Part shown: positions 3,069 to 58,880 of the stretch, piece by piece
How the letters are laid out: each line of letters starts with the position of its first letter
How positions within the stretch are numbered: position 1 is the first letter of the stretch
From: an uncultured Alphaproteobacteria bacterium
GTDB taxonomy: Bacteria; Electryoneota; RPQS01
Length of the DNA: 64,000 bases
Assembly: GCA_964587105.1 (NCBI GenBank)
Contig: CAZPKG010000001.1
Location: 115,508-179,507, forward strand
Direction of reading: 5' to 3'
Made by a program: the position numbers and the translations under genes
The notes under the pieces: generated by a model
Told to the model about the DNA's origin: nothing
The model's database searches: none
Seen by the model: only the letters and a program-made list of their open reading frames with translations

Positions 3069-4613
3069 TTAGCCCAACACCACCCCACACCCCTCGCACA
3101 TCCATTCCCCGGTATCATCCACAAGCTTGTACTGCGATTCGTATTTCTTCCCGTTCTTGCTGATGTGATCCACCGCTTCCAACAAACTCTGAAACTCGTC
3201 TTCACTGACCGTCGGTGATAGACTGATTCTCACCCACCCCGGTTTTTCTCCAATGTGTCCATGATCCAGTCGCTCGCGGATTTCCGCCGAGTGCGATTGC
3301 TCTATGTGCAACAGCAAATGTCCGTACGGCCCCGCACACATGCAGCCGCCGCGCACCTGAATGCCGAATAGGTCATTAAACAGCGCCGCCGCTAAATTGT
3401 GATGCAGGTCTTTGAAGATGACGCTGAACACACCGAGTCGCTTCGCGTCCGTGAGTCCCAAAATGAGAATCTTGTCATTCTTGATCCACTCTTTCAGCGC
3501 GCGCGTCATATAGTCGTGTTCAATCCGTTCAATTCGATCACAGCCGATGGCCGCCTTCATGTCAAAAGCTAATCCCGCCTGAATACTCTGCACAATCGGC
3601 GGAGTGCCTCCCGTTTCACGATGGGCAATCGAAGCCAAATACCGATGATCCCACGGTGAAGTATAAAGCACCGTTCCGCCGCCCGGCTCTGCGGGAACGC
3701 GATTCGTAAACAAATGTTTGTTCGCCACCAAAATCCCCGGTGTGCGCGGCCCGCCTAAAAATTTATGCACGGAGAGAAACACCGCGTCGTAATATCCGAG
3801 CGGATCGTTTTCCGGATGCATGTCAATTTCCACATACGGCCCGGCCGCCGCGAAATCGAAAAATGCGAACGCGCCGTGCTCATGCAGCACACGCGCCAGC
3901 GCATGACAATCATTCAATATTCCTGTCACATTTGACGCCGCGCTGAAGGTGCCGTATTTGACCTTGCGATTCTTGTAAGGCTGCATCTTTTCCGCCAAAT
4001 CGTCAGGGCAAATGCAGCCGTGTTCGTTCAGCTCGACATAGACGGTTTCCGCAATCGTTTCCCGCCAGCAGATATCATTGGAATGATGCTCCATCATCGA
4101 GCGAAACACAACGGGCCGCTCGTTGTCGGGAACATGATCTTTCAAATGATACTTCTCTTCCAACTGATCAGGAAGCCGTAACCCCAAGACATGAATCAAA
4201 CGGTTTATCGTTCCCGTCGAACCTGATCCCACCGGAATCACCACATCCTCGTCATTTGCGTTCATGTAACGGGCGATTCTCTGAAAAGCATTCTCAAACA
4301 ATCTCGTCATGTGACGGCCCGTGAATGAACTTTCCGTGTGCGTGTTGGCCATATAAGGCAACACCCGCTCAGAAATCTCTTCTTCTACGTCGCGATGAAA
4401 TCTGCCCGAAGCGATAAAATCGAAATACTGCAACGGTTTACGGCCAAAAGGAGTTTCAATCTCCGCTCCGCTGCCGTACACTCCGGCGCGAAGCCGCTCT
4501 AAAAATCTCCGTTCATCGGCTTCGTCACGGGTCACCACCGGACCGCGCGGCGAAGCCGTGGTACAGTCGCACAATCTTTGCGAAAACGGAGCGGTTGATG
4601 CTGTTGATGACAT
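3069..4613 (-). CDS. Class V aminotransferase-fold PLP-dependent enzyme (cysteine desulfurase / selenocysteine lyase-like)
   Basis: Track ORF 3069..4712. The likely start is M34 (MSSTASTAPF...), which has an AAGGA Shine-Dalgarno 8 nt upstream and lies 10 nt after the stop of the upstream M14 gene. Length and layout (HK-type PLP region, GGTV...) fit the aminotransferase class V fold. Confidence 0.7.
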   Translation of the reverse strand: MSSTASTAPFSQRLCDCTTASPRGPVVTRDEADERRFLERLRAGVYGSGAEIETPFGRKPLQYFDFIASGRFHRDVEEEISERVLPYMANTHTESSFTGRHMTRLFENAFQRIARYMNANDEDVVIPVGSGSTGTINRLIHVLGLRLPDQLEEKYHLKDHVPDNERPVVFRSMMEHHSNDICWRETIAETVYVELNEHGCICPDDLAEKMQPYKNRKVKYGTFSAASNVTGILNDCHALARVLHEHGAFAFFDFAAAGPYVEIDMHPENDPLGYYDAVFLSVHKFLGGPRTPGILVANKHLFTNRVPAEPGGGTVLYTSPWDHRYLASIAHRETGGTPPIVQSIQAGLAFDMKAAIGCDRIERIEHDYMTRALKEWIKNDKILILGLTDAKRLGVFSVIFKDLHHNLAAALFNDLFGIQVRGGCMCAGPYGHLLLHIEQSHSAEIRERLDHGHIGEKPGWVRISLSPTVSEDEFQSLLEAVDHISKNGKKYESQYKLVDDTGEWMCEGCGVVLG

Positions 4614-6417: not shown

Positions 6418-6548
6418 ATTCCTAAGATACATATTCTCGCGGGGAGCGGCAAGAGCCGATCTTATATTCCGTAAGCTAAGCCGAGACAAATGGTTAAAAA
6501 AAGCCGCCCGAGTATCTGGGCGGCTTTCATCGTTTTCATAAAGAAATA

Positions 6549-18727: not shown

Positions 18728-18769
18728 CAGAGCATGGGTCCCGCGTTCATTTTTCACTGGAGGTGTCCC

Positions 18770-20575
18770 GTGAAGCGCGTGGTTTTATTCAGTTTAGTTT
18801 TTGGGTTGGTTTCGGTTGTCTTTGCCCAAGAGGGCGGCACGCCGGGTTCGGTGTGGATGTATGTGGGGAGTACGTGGTATGACGCTCAAGCTTCTATAAC
18901 TCCCGCGCGAGCAATCGCAGTGGCTCCTGATGGTGAGGTACACTTTGTTTGGACCAAAGGGAGTCAAGATTTGGCATTTCGACAGGCGTTCTACAATTGT
19001 TGGAATACAGAAGCTGGCACGCTGTTAAGCCCTGAAGGTATTCGGATCAGCGCTGGCCGAACCGGTTTTCCTTCAGTTGCGTCCGGCCAGTTTGGCCACG
19101 CACTCGCGGCTTACCACGACAATGGAGGTTCACAAGTCGAAATCAAGCCAGCGATTGAATTCCTCCCTTGCAGTGGAGCGTTCACTCTGAATCTTGATTT
19201 CCCAGAGCCTCCGGTTAATACATACTTCCCGAAATCGGATGTTGATCGTTTAGGTGCATTTCATGTAGCAGGAACTTTAGAGGACAATACCGCGATCAGC
19301 GTGTTTCACGCCCGTGGAATTCCTGCGTATGAAGACGGCACAGGCTACGGAATTGACTGGGAACACACGACGACTTTACAGTCAGTTGATTACGTATATA
19401 ATACAGTCAATATCGCGTGCTCGCCTGTGTCCGATCGTGTCGCGATAGCATGGATAGTTGATCCGCCCGCAGCAAACGACGCGGAGAACATCTTGTTGTC
19501 TTACTCAGAGGATGGCGGTTGGAATTGGAACCCGCCTATATCGGTTACCGGAATTCCTGCGATTGACACGAACTGTGTTGTTGAAGGCGGCAATTGGCGT
19601 GTGTGCAACGCAGACACGTTCCGACCTTTTCGAGACTTGTCTATGATCTTTGACTACGATGATTTTCTGCATATTGCGTTTACTACAAGAGGATGGTACT
19701 ATTTCGACGAAAATGGCGACCCGAATTCAACGGTTAATACTAACGGCTCTATATGGCACTGGAGTGAAGAGGGCTTCTTCAGCCTGATAGCTTATGCATC
19801 TTCGGAACATGACTCCACGAGATTTTTAGGCGACGATAATTTGATGTGTCAACGTCCGTGTTTGGCACTTGACACCTTGAACTTTGGTCTTCATGATCCT
19901 CAATTAATTTGCTCGTTCCAGCAATTTGACAGCTTGGCTTATAGTAGTGGCGGATACGCAATCGGAGAGTATTTTGTCTCCGGCTCATATGATAGGGGGA
20001 GAAATTGGGCGATTCCTACAAATGTGAGTAATACTCCGGGAGAAATGAATGATCCCGAGGGACAGAATCCAAGCGAGCGGGATATTACGATTGCGAAGCT
20101 TGCTTATGACAATTCTATCCACGCCTTGTATTTGCACGATTATGTTGCGGGTTCGACCGGTTGGGATCAGACGCCTGCTCACTTGTGCTCACTCGTTTAC
20201 ATGCGAACGCCTATTGAAGATATCGATATGTCCCGTCTGCAGGAGAACATCCCGTTTCGAGCGGACTCGACTGGGTTCCCCACTGCCAGTGACCAAATTT
20301 CTCCCCTGAAAATCTCTTTTGAATTGCATCCTAATTACCCCAATCCGTTTAATCCGAGCACAACGATTCAGTTTGATTTGGCGAAGGCGGGGGATGTGAA
20401 ATTGATGGTGTTTGATGTGTTGGGGAAGGAAGTGGCGACGCTTGTAAACGGGAGAATGGGTGCGGGAGCGCGTTCGGCCCAGTTTGACGGTGAGAAGTTT
20501 GCGAGCGGAGTTTATTTTGCGCGGTTGTCGGTGGGGAAATTGGCGATGACGCGGAAGATGGTGCTCTTGAAATAG
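18770..20575 (+). CDS. BNR/Asp-box repeat secreted protein with T9SS CTD, tandem paralog of 16693..18612
   Basis: Track ORF starts at 18734. The conserved GGAGGTGTCCC-GTG context supports a GTG start at 18770, giving VKRVVLFSLVFGLVSVVFAQ. It is colinear with the upstream paralog (VGSTWYDAQ.../VGTTWYDYQ..., VSNTPGE...PSERDIT...). Asp-box-like SEDGGWNW and SYDRGRNW. CTD ...YPNPFNPSTTIQFDL...KMVLLK. Confidence 0.7.
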   Translation: MKRVVLFSLVFGLVSVVFAQEGGTPGSVWMYVGSTWYDAQASITPARAIAVAPDGEVHFVWTKGSQDLAFRQAFYNCWNTEAGTLLSPEGIRISAGRTGFPSVASGQFGHALAAYHDNGGSQVEIKPAIEFLPCSGAFTLNLDFPEPPVNTYFPKSDVDRLGAFHVAGTLEDNTAISVFHARGIPAYEDGTGYGIDWEHTTTLQSVDYVYNTVNIACSPVSDRVAIAWIVDPPAANDAENILLSYSEDGGWNWNPPISVTGIPAIDTNCVVEGGNWRVCNADTFRPFRDLSMIFDYDDFLHIAFTTRGWYYFDENGDPNSTVNTNGSIWHWSEEGFFSLIAYASSEHDSTRFLGDDNLMCQRPCLALDTLNFGLHDPQLICSFQQFDSLAYSSGGYAIGEYFVSGSYDRGRNWAIPTNVSNTPGEMNDPEGQNPSERDITIAKLAYDNSIHALYLHDYVAGSTGWDQTPAHLCSLVYMRTPIEDIDMSRLQENIPFRADSTGFPTASDQISPLKISFELHPNYPNPFNPSTTIQFDLAKAGDVKLMVFDVLGKEVATLVNGRMGAGARSAQFDGEKFASGVYFARLSVGKLAMTRKMVLLK

Positions 20576-20602
20576 GAAATTTGAAAAATAGGAAATAGTC
20601 AG

Positions 20603-20642
20603 ATTCCGGCGGGGAACCGCTTCGCTTAATCCCCGCTCGGCG
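20603..20642 (+). repeat. 40-nt GC-rich hairpin element ATTCCGGCGGGGAACCGCTTCGCTTAATCCCCGCTCGGCG, 27 nt 3' of a T9SS-cargo gene
   Basis: Its near-exact reverse complement occurs at 56127..56166, with 1 mismatch over about 40 nt. That copy is also immediately 3' of a T9SS-cargo gene, 1 nt after its stop. Confidence 0.6.
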
Positions 20643-20716
20643 AGTAGAGTTGTCGAGTTGCTGAACATTTTACCCCCCTTAATCCCCCCAGAAGACTGGG
20701 GGGAAATCATACTAAT

Positions 20717-55317: not shown

Positions 55318-55875
55318 ATGTTGCCGCTGATTCTGTTGACTCTACTCTGCACCGCCGCATTTGCCGATGACAAAACGCCCGTGCAAATCAATTTCAATCT
55401 CGTGCAGGTCAACAAATATGATGCTCAGGATGCTGTATTAGAGGATATACAGACTCCCGGGCAGCGCATCGTGATTGACGTGGCTAATGGCGAGACGATG
55501 CTGCAATACCTTGCAGCCGCCGCCAAGGTGCCCGTCAAGGTGCGGCAGTACACCGTCTCAGGACCCGGAAGCTCAACCGAGTTCTGTATCGTGGATTGGG
55601 AGACGCATCAAGTCATCTATGCGCCCAGCGGCGCGGATTCGTTCAAAGTGAGTGCTTCCCGTACGGGCTGTCCCGGCACGGAAGTAGGTCCTTCGGTGGC
55701 GGTATCGTTCGCGTCAAAGGGCGGCTGGAGCGACCCGATTCGCTTCGGTCCTTTGACCTCGAACACCACATGCCCCCTCGGCCACGGCTTCACGCTCGAA
55801 GTCGCCGGACAGGGCACACAACCGCCGCGTATCAAACTTGTGGAAGCAGGTTCGTCCATGTTGGGTAAACGATAG
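55318..55875 (+). CDS. Secreted hypothetical protein
   Basis: AAGGA RBS. Signal peptide MLPLILLTLLCTAAFA. No recognisable motif. Confidence 0.5.
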   Translation: MLPLILLTLLCTAAFADDKTPVQINFNLVQVNKYDAQDAVLEDIQTPGQRIVIDVANGETMLQYLAAAAKVPVKVRQYTVSGPGSSTEFCIVDWETHQVIYAPSGADSFKVSASRTGCPGTEVGPSVAVSFASKGGWSDPIRFGPLTSNTTCPLGHGFTLEVAGQGTQPPRIKLVEAGSSMLGKR

Positions 55876-55903
55876 GGTGCTGAAGCTGACACTTGGAAAA
55901 GAA

Positions 55904-55943
55904 GAAGCGGGCGATGAGAAATCATCGCCCGCTTCGTTTGTCT
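55904..55943 (+). terminator. Rho-independent terminator GAAGCGGGCGATGA-gaaa-TCATCGCCCGCTTC-GTTTGTCTG
   Basis: 14-bp perfect stem plus T-rich tail. Confidence 0.75.
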
Positions 55944-56067
55944 GATTATGTAGGGGCGGATGGCAATCCGCCCGCGCCAAGCCACATCGAAATTCGTCGG
56001 CACTTTGTCATCCTGAACGAAGTGAAGGATCTCGCCAAGCAACCCAACAAATAAAGGTGTCACCACA

Positions 56068-56169
56068 AACGAATGACCGCCGAGCCGGGTTAAGGTCCTC
56101 CGCAACCCGGCCGGAATCTGCCTGTTCGCCGAGCGGGGATTAAGCGTAGCGGTTCCCCGCCGGAATCTC
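56068..56169 (-). repeat. Two tandem units of a structured REP-like element (56126..56169 and 56068..56119), positioned 3' of the PD40/T9SS gene
   Basis: Each unit is CGCCGAG-C-stem-TTAAG-loop-stem'-(G/C)CCGGAATCT. The stems differ but remain complementary: GGGGA/TCCCC versus CCGGGTT/AACCCGG. Confidence 0.55.
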
Positions 56170-57331
56170 ATTTCAGCAAGACCACCTTCCGCATCTCCGC
56201 CCGACCTCCCGCTTCCGCCCGCACAAAATAGATCCCACTGGCCAGCCCCGCAGGCGCACGATACGAAATCGTAGAGTTCGTAAGCCGCCCCCGATTGATC
56301 ACATCCACCTCGCGCCCCAATAAATCATAGAGAGCAACCGTCGTCTCCTGATGAGGCGGAATTGTGAGCGAGATGGATAACGTTGAGTTGAAAGGGTTTG
56401 GGTAAGCGGAAAGAGAAAATGAAGATGAAATTAGTGATCGCTCATGTGCCGAAGATACAATTCTCCTCGCCTGATACAAGCGAGCAGCACCCGTCGGATT
56501 AATGCGCCTGCTGTCAAAAACCAAGTATCTTCCATCTGAAGGACAGCTCGGGCTGTTGTCCCACGGTGGAGTGTTGATTGTCGAGTCACATCGAATCGCT
56601 GGCCCAAACCCTGTGTCGTTTCGCACCGCATAGAAGATATCAAAGTGTTCTCCGCCATACATACCGAAAACCAATGTATTTCCAAAATCAGTTAGACACG
56701 GGTGGTAAGAAGGGTTCAACGCATTTAGGTGCGCGGCGAGCGGGAGCGTTTCAGACCAACTATTATCCAGTTGTAGACGACTAGTGAACATCGCTTCCTC
56801 AAAATGTCCTGGCTGGCCTGTTGAAGTGAATACCAATGTCGAGTCATCAAATGATATCTGTCCTGTGAATTCACGCCCCCTGTTAATTGGATCAGGCAAG
56901 GCCTCTCCAACCGTCCAGTCATCCCAATCCGGCCCAGTCCGATAGGAGACGAAGAAATCGTAGGAGACACCTGTCCATTTCACATAATAGAGGCGTTGCC
57001 GATCAGAAGTAATTGAAGGACTCAAATTGCGCGCTTCATTGTTTACATTCGGCCCAGCATTTACCGGACGAGTCCAAGTTGAATCATCAATTCGCTCGGA
57101 AATATACACGTCGTCGTCACCGTATTGACCGGGGAAAATGGTCATACACAATACTTGACCGTCCGCAGAAATTGTTGAATAATAGTAACTTCCCGGTGGA
57201 TCAACGTTGATCGGAGGCCTCAAAAGCACCGGTTCCGTCCACTGCCCCTGCGTTATTTGATTCGCACCCAAAAACAAAAAAGCGAATCCCACCCACCCGA
57301 GACTTCGGAATATGAATGAGATTCGCTTCAT
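56168..57331 (-). CDS. PD40/TolB-like beta-propeller protein with T9SS CTD
   Basis: Signal peptide. PD40 motifs (SPSITSDRQRLYY, SCPSDGRYLVFDSRR). C-terminus ...AYPNPFNSTLSISL...GIYFVRAEAGGRAEMRKVVLLK. Confidence 0.7.
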   Translation of the reverse strand: MKRISFIFRSLGWVGFAFLFLGANQITQGQWTEPVLLRPPINVDPPGSYYYSTISADGQVLCMTIFPGQYGDDDVYISERIDDSTWTRPVNAGPNVNNEARNLSPSITSDRQRLYYVKWTGVSYDFFVSYRTGPDWDDWTVGEALPDPINRGREFTGQISFDDSTLVFTSTGQPGHFEEAMFTSRLQLDNSWSETLPLAAHLNALNPSYHPCLTDFGNTLVFGMYGGEHFDIFYAVRNDTGFGPAIRCDSTINTPPWDNSPSCPSDGRYLVFDSRRINPTGAARLYQARRIVSSAHERSLISSSFSLSAYPNPFNSTLSISLTIPPHQETTVALYDLLGREVDVINRGRLTNSTISYRAPAGLASGIYFVRAEAGGRAEMRKVVLLK

Positions 57332-58155: not shown

Positions 58156-58880
58156 TCAAAGAAAAATAGAAAACGAATACCGACGCCTGCCAACACTGCG
58201 AGCATGATCCCCTTAAAGACACGTGCCCGCATCCGCGATACCAGCACCTTCCCGAAATAAGAACCCGCAACCATCAGAACCATCAGAGGCAAAAGTAGCA
58301 AATAATCATTCAGCGTAAATAGCGAAGCGCCGCTCCACACAATCAATTTCGCGATGTGCGTTCCCGCCGTTGAAAGCGCTTCGGTAGCAAGAAAACTCTC
58401 TTTCATCAATCCGTAGCGCAGGAAATACGGAGCGAGAATGAGTCCTGATCCGCCGACCACTGCGCTTGAAATGCCCGCCGGAACGCCAATCACCGAGATT
58501 GAATGAATATTCGCACTCTTGGGCCACTGCACGCGCATGAAATTTAGCCCGACATAGATCAGTAAGTACGCACCGAGTATTTTCGCAATCCAGAACGCCG
58601 GAAGATACGCATACGCCAGCGCTCCGAGAGCCGCTGCGGGCATTCCTGTAATCAAGAACGCGCGCACGACCTTCCAATCCACGAAGTCTCGTGCAAACCA
58701 CGCGCGCGAGAAATTGCCGGCCAGCAACAGCAGGGAAAGATAAGGCACGGCGAGCTTCATGCCGACAATCTCAGCGAGAATCGGCAAGTAAATCATGCCG
58801 CCGCCGACGCCTGCAATCCCCGATACAGTCGAGGCCAACAGCGCGCCGGCGGCCAATATGACGTAATCTGTTACCGGCAA
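58152..58880 (-). CDS. TauE/SafE family sulfite/anion exporter (membrane protein)
   Basis: Duplicated 4-TM halves with G.GGG..(Y/I)LP(I/A)L motifs, 242 aa. Confidence 0.8.
   Translation of the reverse strand: MPVTDYVILAAGALLASTVSGIAGVGGGMIYLPILAEIVGMKLAVPYLSLLLLAGNFSRAWFARDFVDWKVVRAFLITGMPAAALGALAYAYLPAFWIAKILGAYLLIYVGLNFMRVQWPKSANIHSISVIGVPAGISSAVVGGSGLILAPYFLRYGLMKESFLATEALSTAGTHIAKLIVWSGASLFTLNDYLLLLPLMVLMVAGSYFGKVLVSRMRARVFKGIMLAVLAGVGIRFLFFFE

Follow-up and report, generated by a model that had tools for sequence, protein, structure and literature searches.

What are the two short palindromes that follow each other at about 56 kb in the 64,000-nt stretch of contig CAZPKG010000001.1 analysed here (GCA_964587105.1, positions 115,508 to 179,507; hereafter the window), directly beyond a gene whose product carries PD40 and type IX secretion system (T9SS) C-terminal sorting domains? 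An earlier note, made from the letters alone, had described them as tandem units resembling repetitive extragenic palindromic (REP) elements and had offered either a structured RNA or a mosaic of REP units as the explanation. In our analysis, the two units (a and b) and a further copy at 20.6 kb are very probably REPs, i.e., non-autonomous DNA elements of ~44 nt that form imperfect palindromes and, in related genomes, are served by a dedicated REP-associated tyrosine transposase (RAYT). The units form a repeat family with a covarying structure, are associated with RAYT genes in related genomes, show an extragenic bias towards the 3' ends of genes and are polymorphic in copy number. Loci from related genomes are denoted below by L numbers.

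Sequence and fold of the units

An exact pattern search recovered from the window both tandem sequences quoted in the earlier note, compensatory stems included (Table 1). Unit a reads C-CGCCGAGC-CGGGTT-AAGGTCCTCCGC-AACCCG-GCCGGAATCT, and unit b reads T-CGCCGAGC-GGGGA-TTAAGCGTAGCGGT-TCCCC-GCCGGAATCT with an inner GC/GC mini-hairpin. In a gapless alignment, they lie in the same orientation (head to tail) and have CGCCGAGC and GCCGGAATCT in common; the differences between them consist of two compensatory pairs (C-G versus G-C and T-A versus A-T) and most of the loop. The interval originally assigned to the units contains both of them, although its start for unit a, at 56068, was placed ~10 nt too low. 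The stems were correctly paired but drawn too short, as the flanking CCG and CGG also pair around a bulged A. The complete order of the fold is CCG, bulged A, GC, variable stem, loop, stem, GC and CGG, which gives a helix of ~10–11 bp with one bulged A. Folding energies of -23.6 kcal/mol (z = -3.0) and -20.8 kcal/mol (z = -2.1) were obtained for units a and b, respectively. A further GTCA...TGAC hairpin proposed beside unit a has a 4-bp stem and an 11-nt loop, is absent from the repeat-search output and is not meaningful.

The window contains three copies: the flank pattern matched three times, compared with 0.00 matches expected from 100 shuffles. A covariance model built from aligned units (R1) was applied to the window and to 34 family loci. 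The three window copies scored 60–68 bits (E ~1e-15 to 1e-17), with 60.2 bits for unit a (E 1.3e-15) and 66.6 bits for unit b, and no degenerate copies above 12.3 bits were detected by R1 across the 64 kb with filters off. On the reverse strand of the units, R1 reached only 8–12 bits, and the units thus have a defined polarity.

A covarying repeat family in related genomes

The genome scan covered one genome per species with the pattern CGCCGAGC-SSSS-N10-32-SSSS-GCCGGAATCT. Many phyla gave chance matches, while repeated hits with clean hairpins were observed in at least eight species-level metagenome-assembled genomes (MAGs), namely JADKHW01, CAZHAK01, JADLDM01, JACJWA01, JAPKYT01, RPQS01, CAYORN01 and JAGVEU01. 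Record titles assign JACJWA01 and JAGVEU01 to Calditrichaeota and RPQS01 to candidate division KSB1. The tighter pattern was needed because a looser one, CGCCGAGC-N20-40-CCGGAATCT, returned chance matches: in viral contigs, the best 25 (by folding energy) of at least 120 stretches were all of this kind, with no family-type hairpin. In the 34 family loci, which come from eight related species, R1 identified 51 units above 30 bits. Together with additional units in five other assemblies or metagenomes, more than 60 distinct homologous units are present in at least 12 related uncultured genomes.

These units fall into several subtypes. Subtype A is GAGC-CGGGTT...AACCCG-GCCGG, and subtype B is GAGC-GGGGA...TCCCC-GCCGG with the inner mini-hairpin GC-GAA-GC, which is lengthened compensatorily in some variants (GGAC-GAA-GTCC, GCAC-GAA-GTGC and GCGC-GTCA-GCGC). 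Subtype C is GAGC-AGGGTC-TCCA-GACCCT-GCCGG, subtypes D and E have the stems GGACTG/CAGTCC and GGTGGCG/CGCCCC, and the L155 unit is a hybrid in which the A-type loop is combined with G-C pairing at the first variable position. Common to all units are CGCCGAGC and GCCGGAATCT as flanks and the bulged A, while the stem varies compensatorily. The family is consequently defined by its foot, CCG-A(bulge)-GC ... GC-CGG, and by largely single-stranded tags, (Y)CG at the 5' side and AATCT(G) at the 3' side; the upper stem and loop vary freely provided that pairing is kept.

In a MAFFT alignment of 46 distinct units, 93.8% of the cells pair. With 64 distinct units, the proportion is 94.1%, compared with 24–55% when the 3' partners are slid by 1–3 columns. 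Both sides change in 8 of the 15 pairs, for example in pair 11-40 (GC 34, CG 22, AU 5, UG 1), pair 16-36 (UA 33, AU 23, CG 2, GU 1) and pair 17-35 (UA 23, GC 6, CG 5, GU 1), and the observed covariation score was reached by 0 of 500 shuffles. A check free of bias towards pairing also supports the structure: with a flank-only regular expression, 5–6 of the 6 stem positions were paired in 48 of 62 matches from family loci, against 6 of 101 chance matches; chance flank matches in unrelated genomes mostly had 2–3 of 6 positions paired. The covarying stems noticed from two copies thus hold far beyond them. The earlier note had made its interpretation depend on further homologous units and wider covariation, and both were found, in more than 60 and across 64 units, respectively.

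A different, recurring hairpin, GGCGGCAGGCGTCTTCGGTCTTCGCCTGCCCCGCTTC, is often found right beside REP units in several MAGs (L128, L175, L197 and L217), and a similar sequence occurs in L241 (~910–945).

Association with a RAYT transposase

Inverted pairs of units were observed in three loci, and in two of these the pair brackets a small open reading frame (ORF), at 6513–7013 in L170 and at 438–980 in L143. Both ORFs match Pfam Y1_Tnp above the gathering score and the NCBIfam equivalog NF047646, 'REP-associated tyrosine transposase', with 90.7 and 92.6 bits (cut-off 80). The two proteins are 54% identical and contain the HUH motif (PDHLHALL) and the tyrosine motif (YMHQNPV; Y-M/V-H-x-NPV); their best match among solved structures is E. 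coli TnpA-REP (4ER8), which is remote (E = 0.028). A protein search retrieved 38 RAYT homologues, some of them named in the source records as 'REP element-mobilizing transposase RayT' or 'REP-associated tyrosine transposase [Calditrichota bacterium]'.

Five homologue loci (L230, L232, L233, L235 and L236) were examined with R1 in addition to L170 and L143. In four of the five, a unit on the plus strand ends 4–9 nt before the ATG and a unit on the minus strand starts 0–7 nt past the stop codon; in L235, this architecture holds only after correction of an over-called start codon. In total, 6 of 7 RAYT loci show the arrangement of a REPtron, a gene of 160–170 aa between inverted units within 0–9 nt. 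The flanking subtype follows the RAYT: subtype B units flank the genes in L170 and L230, whose proteins are 68% identical, subtype A units, nearly identical to unit a, those in L143, L233 and L236, and units of the fourth stem type, D, the gene in L235. In addition to the pairs around RAYT genes, inverted unit pairs were observed in L130 and in L233 (1386–1423, minus, with 1453–1497, plus). The presence in relatives of RAYT genes flanked by these very units makes the identification as REPs much stronger than the initial 'REP-like'.

Genomic distribution and turnover

The units show the extragenic distribution of REPs, with 13 in convergent, 23 in tandem and 1 in divergent spacers. Gene context was taken from crude longest-ORF calls; six more cases that appeared to lie inside genes are probably over-called ORFs, and 11 lay at locus edges. 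By our own estimate, at most 1 of 37 units in a divergent spacer has a binomial probability of ~3e-4 if 25% were expected. Relative to the upstream gene, ~13 units are sense and ~10 antisense, and about one-fifth of the units lie within 10 nt of a stop codon. All three copies in the window come after genes for T9SS-sorted proteins; these genomes have large numbers of such genes, and a PD40 homologue in L227 has no unit after it.

Syntenic loci of close relatives, which the earlier note had proposed comparing for presence or absence, revealed mobility or turnover at the 56-kb site: L225 has 0 units, the window 2 and L241 4. The array is thus unstable over a short evolutionary distance. In L225, the PD40/T9SS protein is 88% identical and the gene order is that of the window, with alignment of window positions 58876–56170 at 81.7% and 55937–55822 at 90.5%. 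The 134-nt spacer of L225, however, has nothing in common with the 232 nt of the window and contains other small repeats instead of units. Homology ends inside the stop codon, after its T (TGA at window 56168–56170; TAG at L225 2719–2721). The G and A of the window stop codon are the first bases past this end, and on that strand unit b begins with the last of them. A similar overlap, of the stop codon TAG with AGATTCCGG, is present in L241.

Locus L241 was found through the terminator that it shares with the window, and its flanking genes are 94.8% and ~85% identical in nucleotide sequence. At 1311–1488, it carries four head-to-tail units in the order A, E, B, E, ending at the stop codon. The hexamer GCTGGT precedes each E unit and stands at the junctions equivalent to the GCCTGT spacer of the window, giving A-GCTGGT-E-...-B-GCTGGT-E in L241 and A-GCCTGT-B in the window. 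The two arrays differ by exactly two E units, which fits insertion next to an AATCY tag or deletion between directly repeated flanks, and suggests that modules of spacer plus unit are inserted or deleted at that tag. More speculatively, the RAYT might insert new units site-specifically, directly 3' to an existing unit's AATCY tag or at a similar short target beside stop codons; we regard this proposal as rather doubtful. If it were correct, tag-directed insertion would build head-to-tail hetero-arrays, unlike the inverted-doublet model of REPINs discussed below.

The conserved copy at 20.6 kb

The third copy lies 25 nt past the stop codon of a gene for a T9SS-sorted protein, to which it is antisense, and 74 nt ahead of the start of an aminotransferase gene. 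It is kept in place in the syntenic locus L238 (GCA_013360195.1), where the T9SS protein is 56% identical and the flanking DNA and genes are ~74% identical in nucleotide sequence. The 141-nt spacer (window 20576–20716; L238 4283–4422) is 97% identical, with 96–100% per 50-nt bin; identity reaches 100% within the spacer and falls off to both sides. Among the loci compared, the parts of the spacer outside the REP are unique to this locus. A larger mobile element at 20.6 kb was rejected, the flanks of the copy being unique to that locus. The spacer is possibly a conserved leader or promoter with an exapted REP, or a recombination tract, and some copies, such as this one, may have been co-opted by the host.

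Within the same spacer, an element CCCCCC-TTAAT-CCCCCC-AGAAGACT-GGGGGG was observed at 20673–20703 (plus strand), whose lone G6 run has two possible pairing partners, the two C6 runs. Comparable C6/G6 elements are present in L128, L146, L227 and L241, close to gene starts or ends.

Alternative explanations

The alternative that survives best holds that the units are a cis-acting structured RNA, i.e., a stabiliser or regulator in the 3' untranslated region (UTR) or a small RNA, under selection at the RNA level and repeated by convergence or as duplicated modules. Stable hairpins and compensatory changes would be expected of such an RNA, the three window copies are all found in 3' UTRs, past a stop codon and ahead of the next signal, and the 20.6-kb copy is perfectly kept in a relative at 74% nucleotide identity. 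Nevertheless, the units occur in both orientations relative to the upstream gene (~13 versus 10) although their flanks are not palindromic; the reverse-strand scores are only 8–12 bits. Together with the REP-type distribution, this argues against a strand-specific RNA gene. Inverted pairs around RAYT genes and 0, 2 or 4 copies at one locus in close relatives are likewise at odds with it. Rfam 15 gave 0 matches in the window at gathering thresholds, and with a permissive E-value over the units only microRNA models were returned (E = 6–9); no promoter-like site was found. The structured-RNA gene suggested in the earlier note is hence improbable, whereas an RNA-level side effect of the units is compatible with their identification as REPs.

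As G+C-rich hairpins directly past stop codons, the units might instead be Rho-independent terminators of the T9SS gene. This is highly improbable: no U/T tract follows the hairpin on either strand, where the flanks read CCGGAATCTG and CTCGGCGA, a scan for terminators returned only the hairpin at 55904–55935, and this true terminator is kept in L225, which is without units.

Integron attC sites vary in sequence, are conserved in structure, lie just 3' of genes and carry the core motifs RYYYAAC and GTTRRRY. Recombination sites of this or another system would account for conserved flanks around a variable palindromic core, for an extrahelical base and for the position right past stop codons. We give this reading next to no credence, as RYYYAAC and GTTRRRY do not occur in the unit alignments, the units (42 nt) are shorter than attC, the associated gene is a Y1/HUH RAYT rather than an integrase, and the genes to either side are ordinary chromosomal ones whose synteny is conserved. 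A local tandem duplication followed by drift, or a resemblance by chance without a wider family, was conceivable while only the two adjacent copies were visible, but is refuted by the third copy 35 kb away, with 0 chance matches expected in the window, and by the more than 60 distinct units that at least 12 other genomes contain.

Several observations also weigh against the identification as REPs itself. Four stem positions per side had to be G or C to match the scan pattern, and four had to be paired to match the regular expression for extra variants, so those stem pairs were partly pre-selected. The changes moreover fall in few subfamilies (A, B, C, D, E) and therefore represent few independent events. 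No RAYT gene was detected within the 64-kb window by tblastn, and in one KSB1 MAG (L232, 1350–2160) a RAYT that is 53% identical to that of L170 has several direct copies of a different hairpin repeat, CCGATGGGGCACTTGAAGACAAGTGCCGCCAAGA, on each side. Neither a GTAG nor a CGTC tag is present in the unit alignments, which show a conserved tag of their own. Finally, the identity of the 20.6-kb spacer, 97% against 74% in the flanking genes, speaks for constraint at the host level or for recombination, not for simple selfish turnover.

The 56-kb locus as a repeat mosaic

The features of both loci are listed in Table 1. As placed by the earlier note, units a and b are downstream of the PD40/T9SS gene; more precisely, they lie in its 3' UTR. 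The two genes at the site are convergent and have the terminator in common, and the 232 nt at 55938–56169 therefore constitute the 3' UTR of the PD40/T9SS gene, with the terminator marking the far end of this repeat-filled region. The PD40/T9SS mRNA carries the units as reverse complements. Unit b is flush with the stop codon, its last base (56168) being the last base of the TGA of this minus-strand gene. The terminator, given in the earlier note as 55904..55943, is real and bidirectional, with its stem at 55904–55935, and is kept in L225 and L241. A Pfam scan of the convergent 185-aa ORF gave no match.

Table 1. Coordinates of the REP units and neighbouring features in the window.
Feature	Position	Strand	Description
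REP unit a, subtype A	56078-56119 (leading C at 56077)	+	42 nt; pattern match, covariance model, fold
Spacer between units a and b	56120-56125	+	GCCTGT; 7 nt (GCCTGTT) counting the leading T of unit b
REP unit b, subtype B	56127-56168 (leading T at 56126)	+	42 nt; pattern match, covariance model, fold
Third copy, subtype B	20601-20642	-	41/42 identical to unit b; pattern match, 67.6 bits
PD40/T9SS C-terminal sorting domain gene	56168-57331	-	Pfam PF18962, PF07676; protein P0001 100% identical
Convergent 185-aa gene	55318-55875	+	Bounds the other side of the intergenic region; 94.8% nt identical in L241
Bidirectional intrinsic terminator	55904-55935	both	14-bp stem, T-rich tails on both strands; terminator scan
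GTAG-headed hairpin	55950-55973	+	GTAG-GGGCGGAT-GGCA-ATCCGCCC; single copy in the window
Third repeat family	56007-56033	-	GAGATCCTTC-ACTTCG-TTCAGGATGAC; conserved flanks, variable palindromic core
T9SS-sorted gene upstream of the third copy	18734-20575	+	Pfam PF18962

Two more repeat families share this 3' UTR. The GCGGAT/ATCCGC hairpin of the earlier note is real but is situated at 55954–55973, not at 55946–55961, within a GTAG-headed hairpin. Copies of the latter occur in L181, L186, L221, L224, L226 and L241, often followed by a G/C-rich tail such as GCGCCAAGC, and it probably represents a second REP family of classical appearance, with a RAYT of its own. Variants of the third repeat family were identified in L130, L134, L154, L175, L189 and L225–L229, with an insert of 0–30 nt; in the syntenic locus L225, its element is in the opposite orientation. 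Subtypes A and B, the GTAG hairpin and the GAGATCCTTC...GGATGAC element are thus clustered within 232 nt. As the two additional families recur in loci of related MAGs, the description 'mosaic of REP-type elements' is accurate. A larger mobile element behind the non-REP DNA was rejected, the 56-kb region resolving into separate small repeat families.

Two further observations concern the surroundings of such repeats. Two ORFs, 55617–56171 (minus strand, 184 aa) and 55893–56054 (plus strand, 53 aa), cross the repeat mosaic and are probably spurious. In L226 (MAG JADKHW01), several tandem repeats of ~60–115 nt were observed at 4255–4490, where they follow a PD40/T9SS paralogue; GATCCTTCCAGGATGACAAGGTGATTT or a variant of it is present in most of them, and a GTAG-type hairpin comes after them.

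Proposed mechanism and implications

The family would be spread and maintained by its dedicated RAYT, which belongs to the HUH/Y1 enzymes of the IS200/IS605 superfamily. If it acts like E. coli TnpA-REP and IS608 TnpA, the RAYT may recognise the hairpin, folded from single-stranded DNA, by its foot, bulge and tag, and may cut and rejoin the adjacent single-stranded DNA. This would account for the near-invariant foot and tags and the covarying stem among genomes with RAYTs that are only ~50% identical.

E. coli REPs act as a barrier to 3'-to-5' exonucleases. The units at 56 kb would be transcribed in the 3' UTR as two stable RNA hairpins, which by analogy are probably barriers of the same type. 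Unit b, located at the stop codon, may in addition hinder terminating ribosomes; reduced translation and transfer-messenger RNA tagging have reportedly been seen with E. coli REPs within ~15 nt of stop codons. Units flush with the stop codons of genes for secreted proteins could in this way tune expression.

The analysis provides a precise and testable REP/RAYT definition for an uncultured lineage that is entered in the records as KSB1, Calditrichota or simply 'bacterium'. It is also of use for annotation: spurious ORFs are called over the units, false 'hypothetical proteins' in these MAGs probably stem in part from such repeats, and breaks in short-read assemblies may occur there. Furthermore, a REP family without GTAG, with near-invariant foot, bulge and tags and a covarying stem, constitutes a natural data set on what a RAYT reads.

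Comparison with known REP systems

No description of this unit family was found in the literature on REPs with Calditrichota or KSB1, and for Caldithrix abyssi a single repeat has been reported, an 18-nt palindrome unrelated to the units (PMC5317091). The family leaves what is known of REPs unchanged. Its less usual aspects are the head-to-tail hetero-arrays, the units flush with stop codons and the copy in an ultra-conserved spacer.

Di Nocera et al. 2013 (PMC3733652) place classical REPs downstream of ORFs, between unidirectional or convergent genes, and describe 'TIRYT' genes, i.e., tyrosine-transposase genes between inverted repeats that lack GTAG, are partly self-complementary and make up moderate repeat families. 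The units share the general anatomy and genomic distribution of the GTAG and CGTC super-families and resemble the non-GTAG TIRYT repeats. Unlike the two super-families and some of the terminal inverted repeats treated there, they contain no GTAG, CGTC or GGGGWSAS motif, which places the family outside the two described super-families. The hairpin at 55950–55973 does carry GTAG and may belong to the GTAG super-family.

With the REPs and bacterial interspersed mosaic elements (BIMEs) of E. coli and their transposase TnpA-REP (YafM, 4ER8), the units have in common short imperfect palindromes, a mismatch or bulge near the foot, a conserved unpaired tag, extragenic copies at gene 3' ends, of which three lie in the window and 51 in the 34 loci of related species, and the clustering of different REP types in one spacer. 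The E. coli REPtron is also matched, with a HUH/Tyr transposase gene between inverted units, scores above the NF047646 cut-off and 4ER8 as the best match among solved structures. E. coli TnpA-REP reads the REP hairpin through a stem mismatch and a base-specific 5' GTAG tag (Messing et al. 2012, PMC3479197). By analogy, the invariant foot with its bulged A and the CG.../...AATCT tags match what the RAYT would read here. Unlike E. coli REPs, the units lack GTAG and conserve CGCCGAGC and GCCGGAATCT instead, and they are known so far from sequence. BIMEs alternate the orientation of their units with defined linkers, whereas the units described here follow one another head to tail at variable distances; in L180, L189, L191, L203, L233, L236 and L241, which also have direct arrays, the spacers measure 2 to ~48 nt. 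The 'BIME-like mosaic' of the earlier note is consequently apt for the clustering of several repeat families, but the successive units are direct rather than alternating, and the array is not a BIME in the strict sense.

In the Pseudomonas REPIN-RAYT systems (Bertels & Rainey 2011, PMC3116915; Bertels et al. 2017, PMC5581495), the repeats are likewise tied to the RAYT gene that they flank. The recurrence of the unit family across species with diverged RAYTs is compatible with the long vertical persistence reported for these systems, and subfamilies within a genome similarly each go with a RAYT of their own. REPINs are proposed to replicate as inverted REP doublets, each forming one long hairpin (PMC3116915; PMC5581495). 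R1 detected no inverted partner unit at either window locus, and these loci are therefore not REPINs; in the family as a whole, unlike in REPINs, singletons and direct arrays prevail, and inverted pairs are found mainly around the RAYT gene.

Finally, the units resemble the ends of IS200/IS605 insertion sequences (IS608, ISDra2) in forming imperfect hairpins with a short conserved foot, and recognition of such hairpins as single-stranded DNA by Y1 HUH enzymes is known for IS200/IS605. Unlike those ends, they are not the termini of an insertion sequence but stand alone at ~44 nt, and in 6 of 7 cases the transposase gene is arranged as a minimal cassette of REP, gene and inverted REP.

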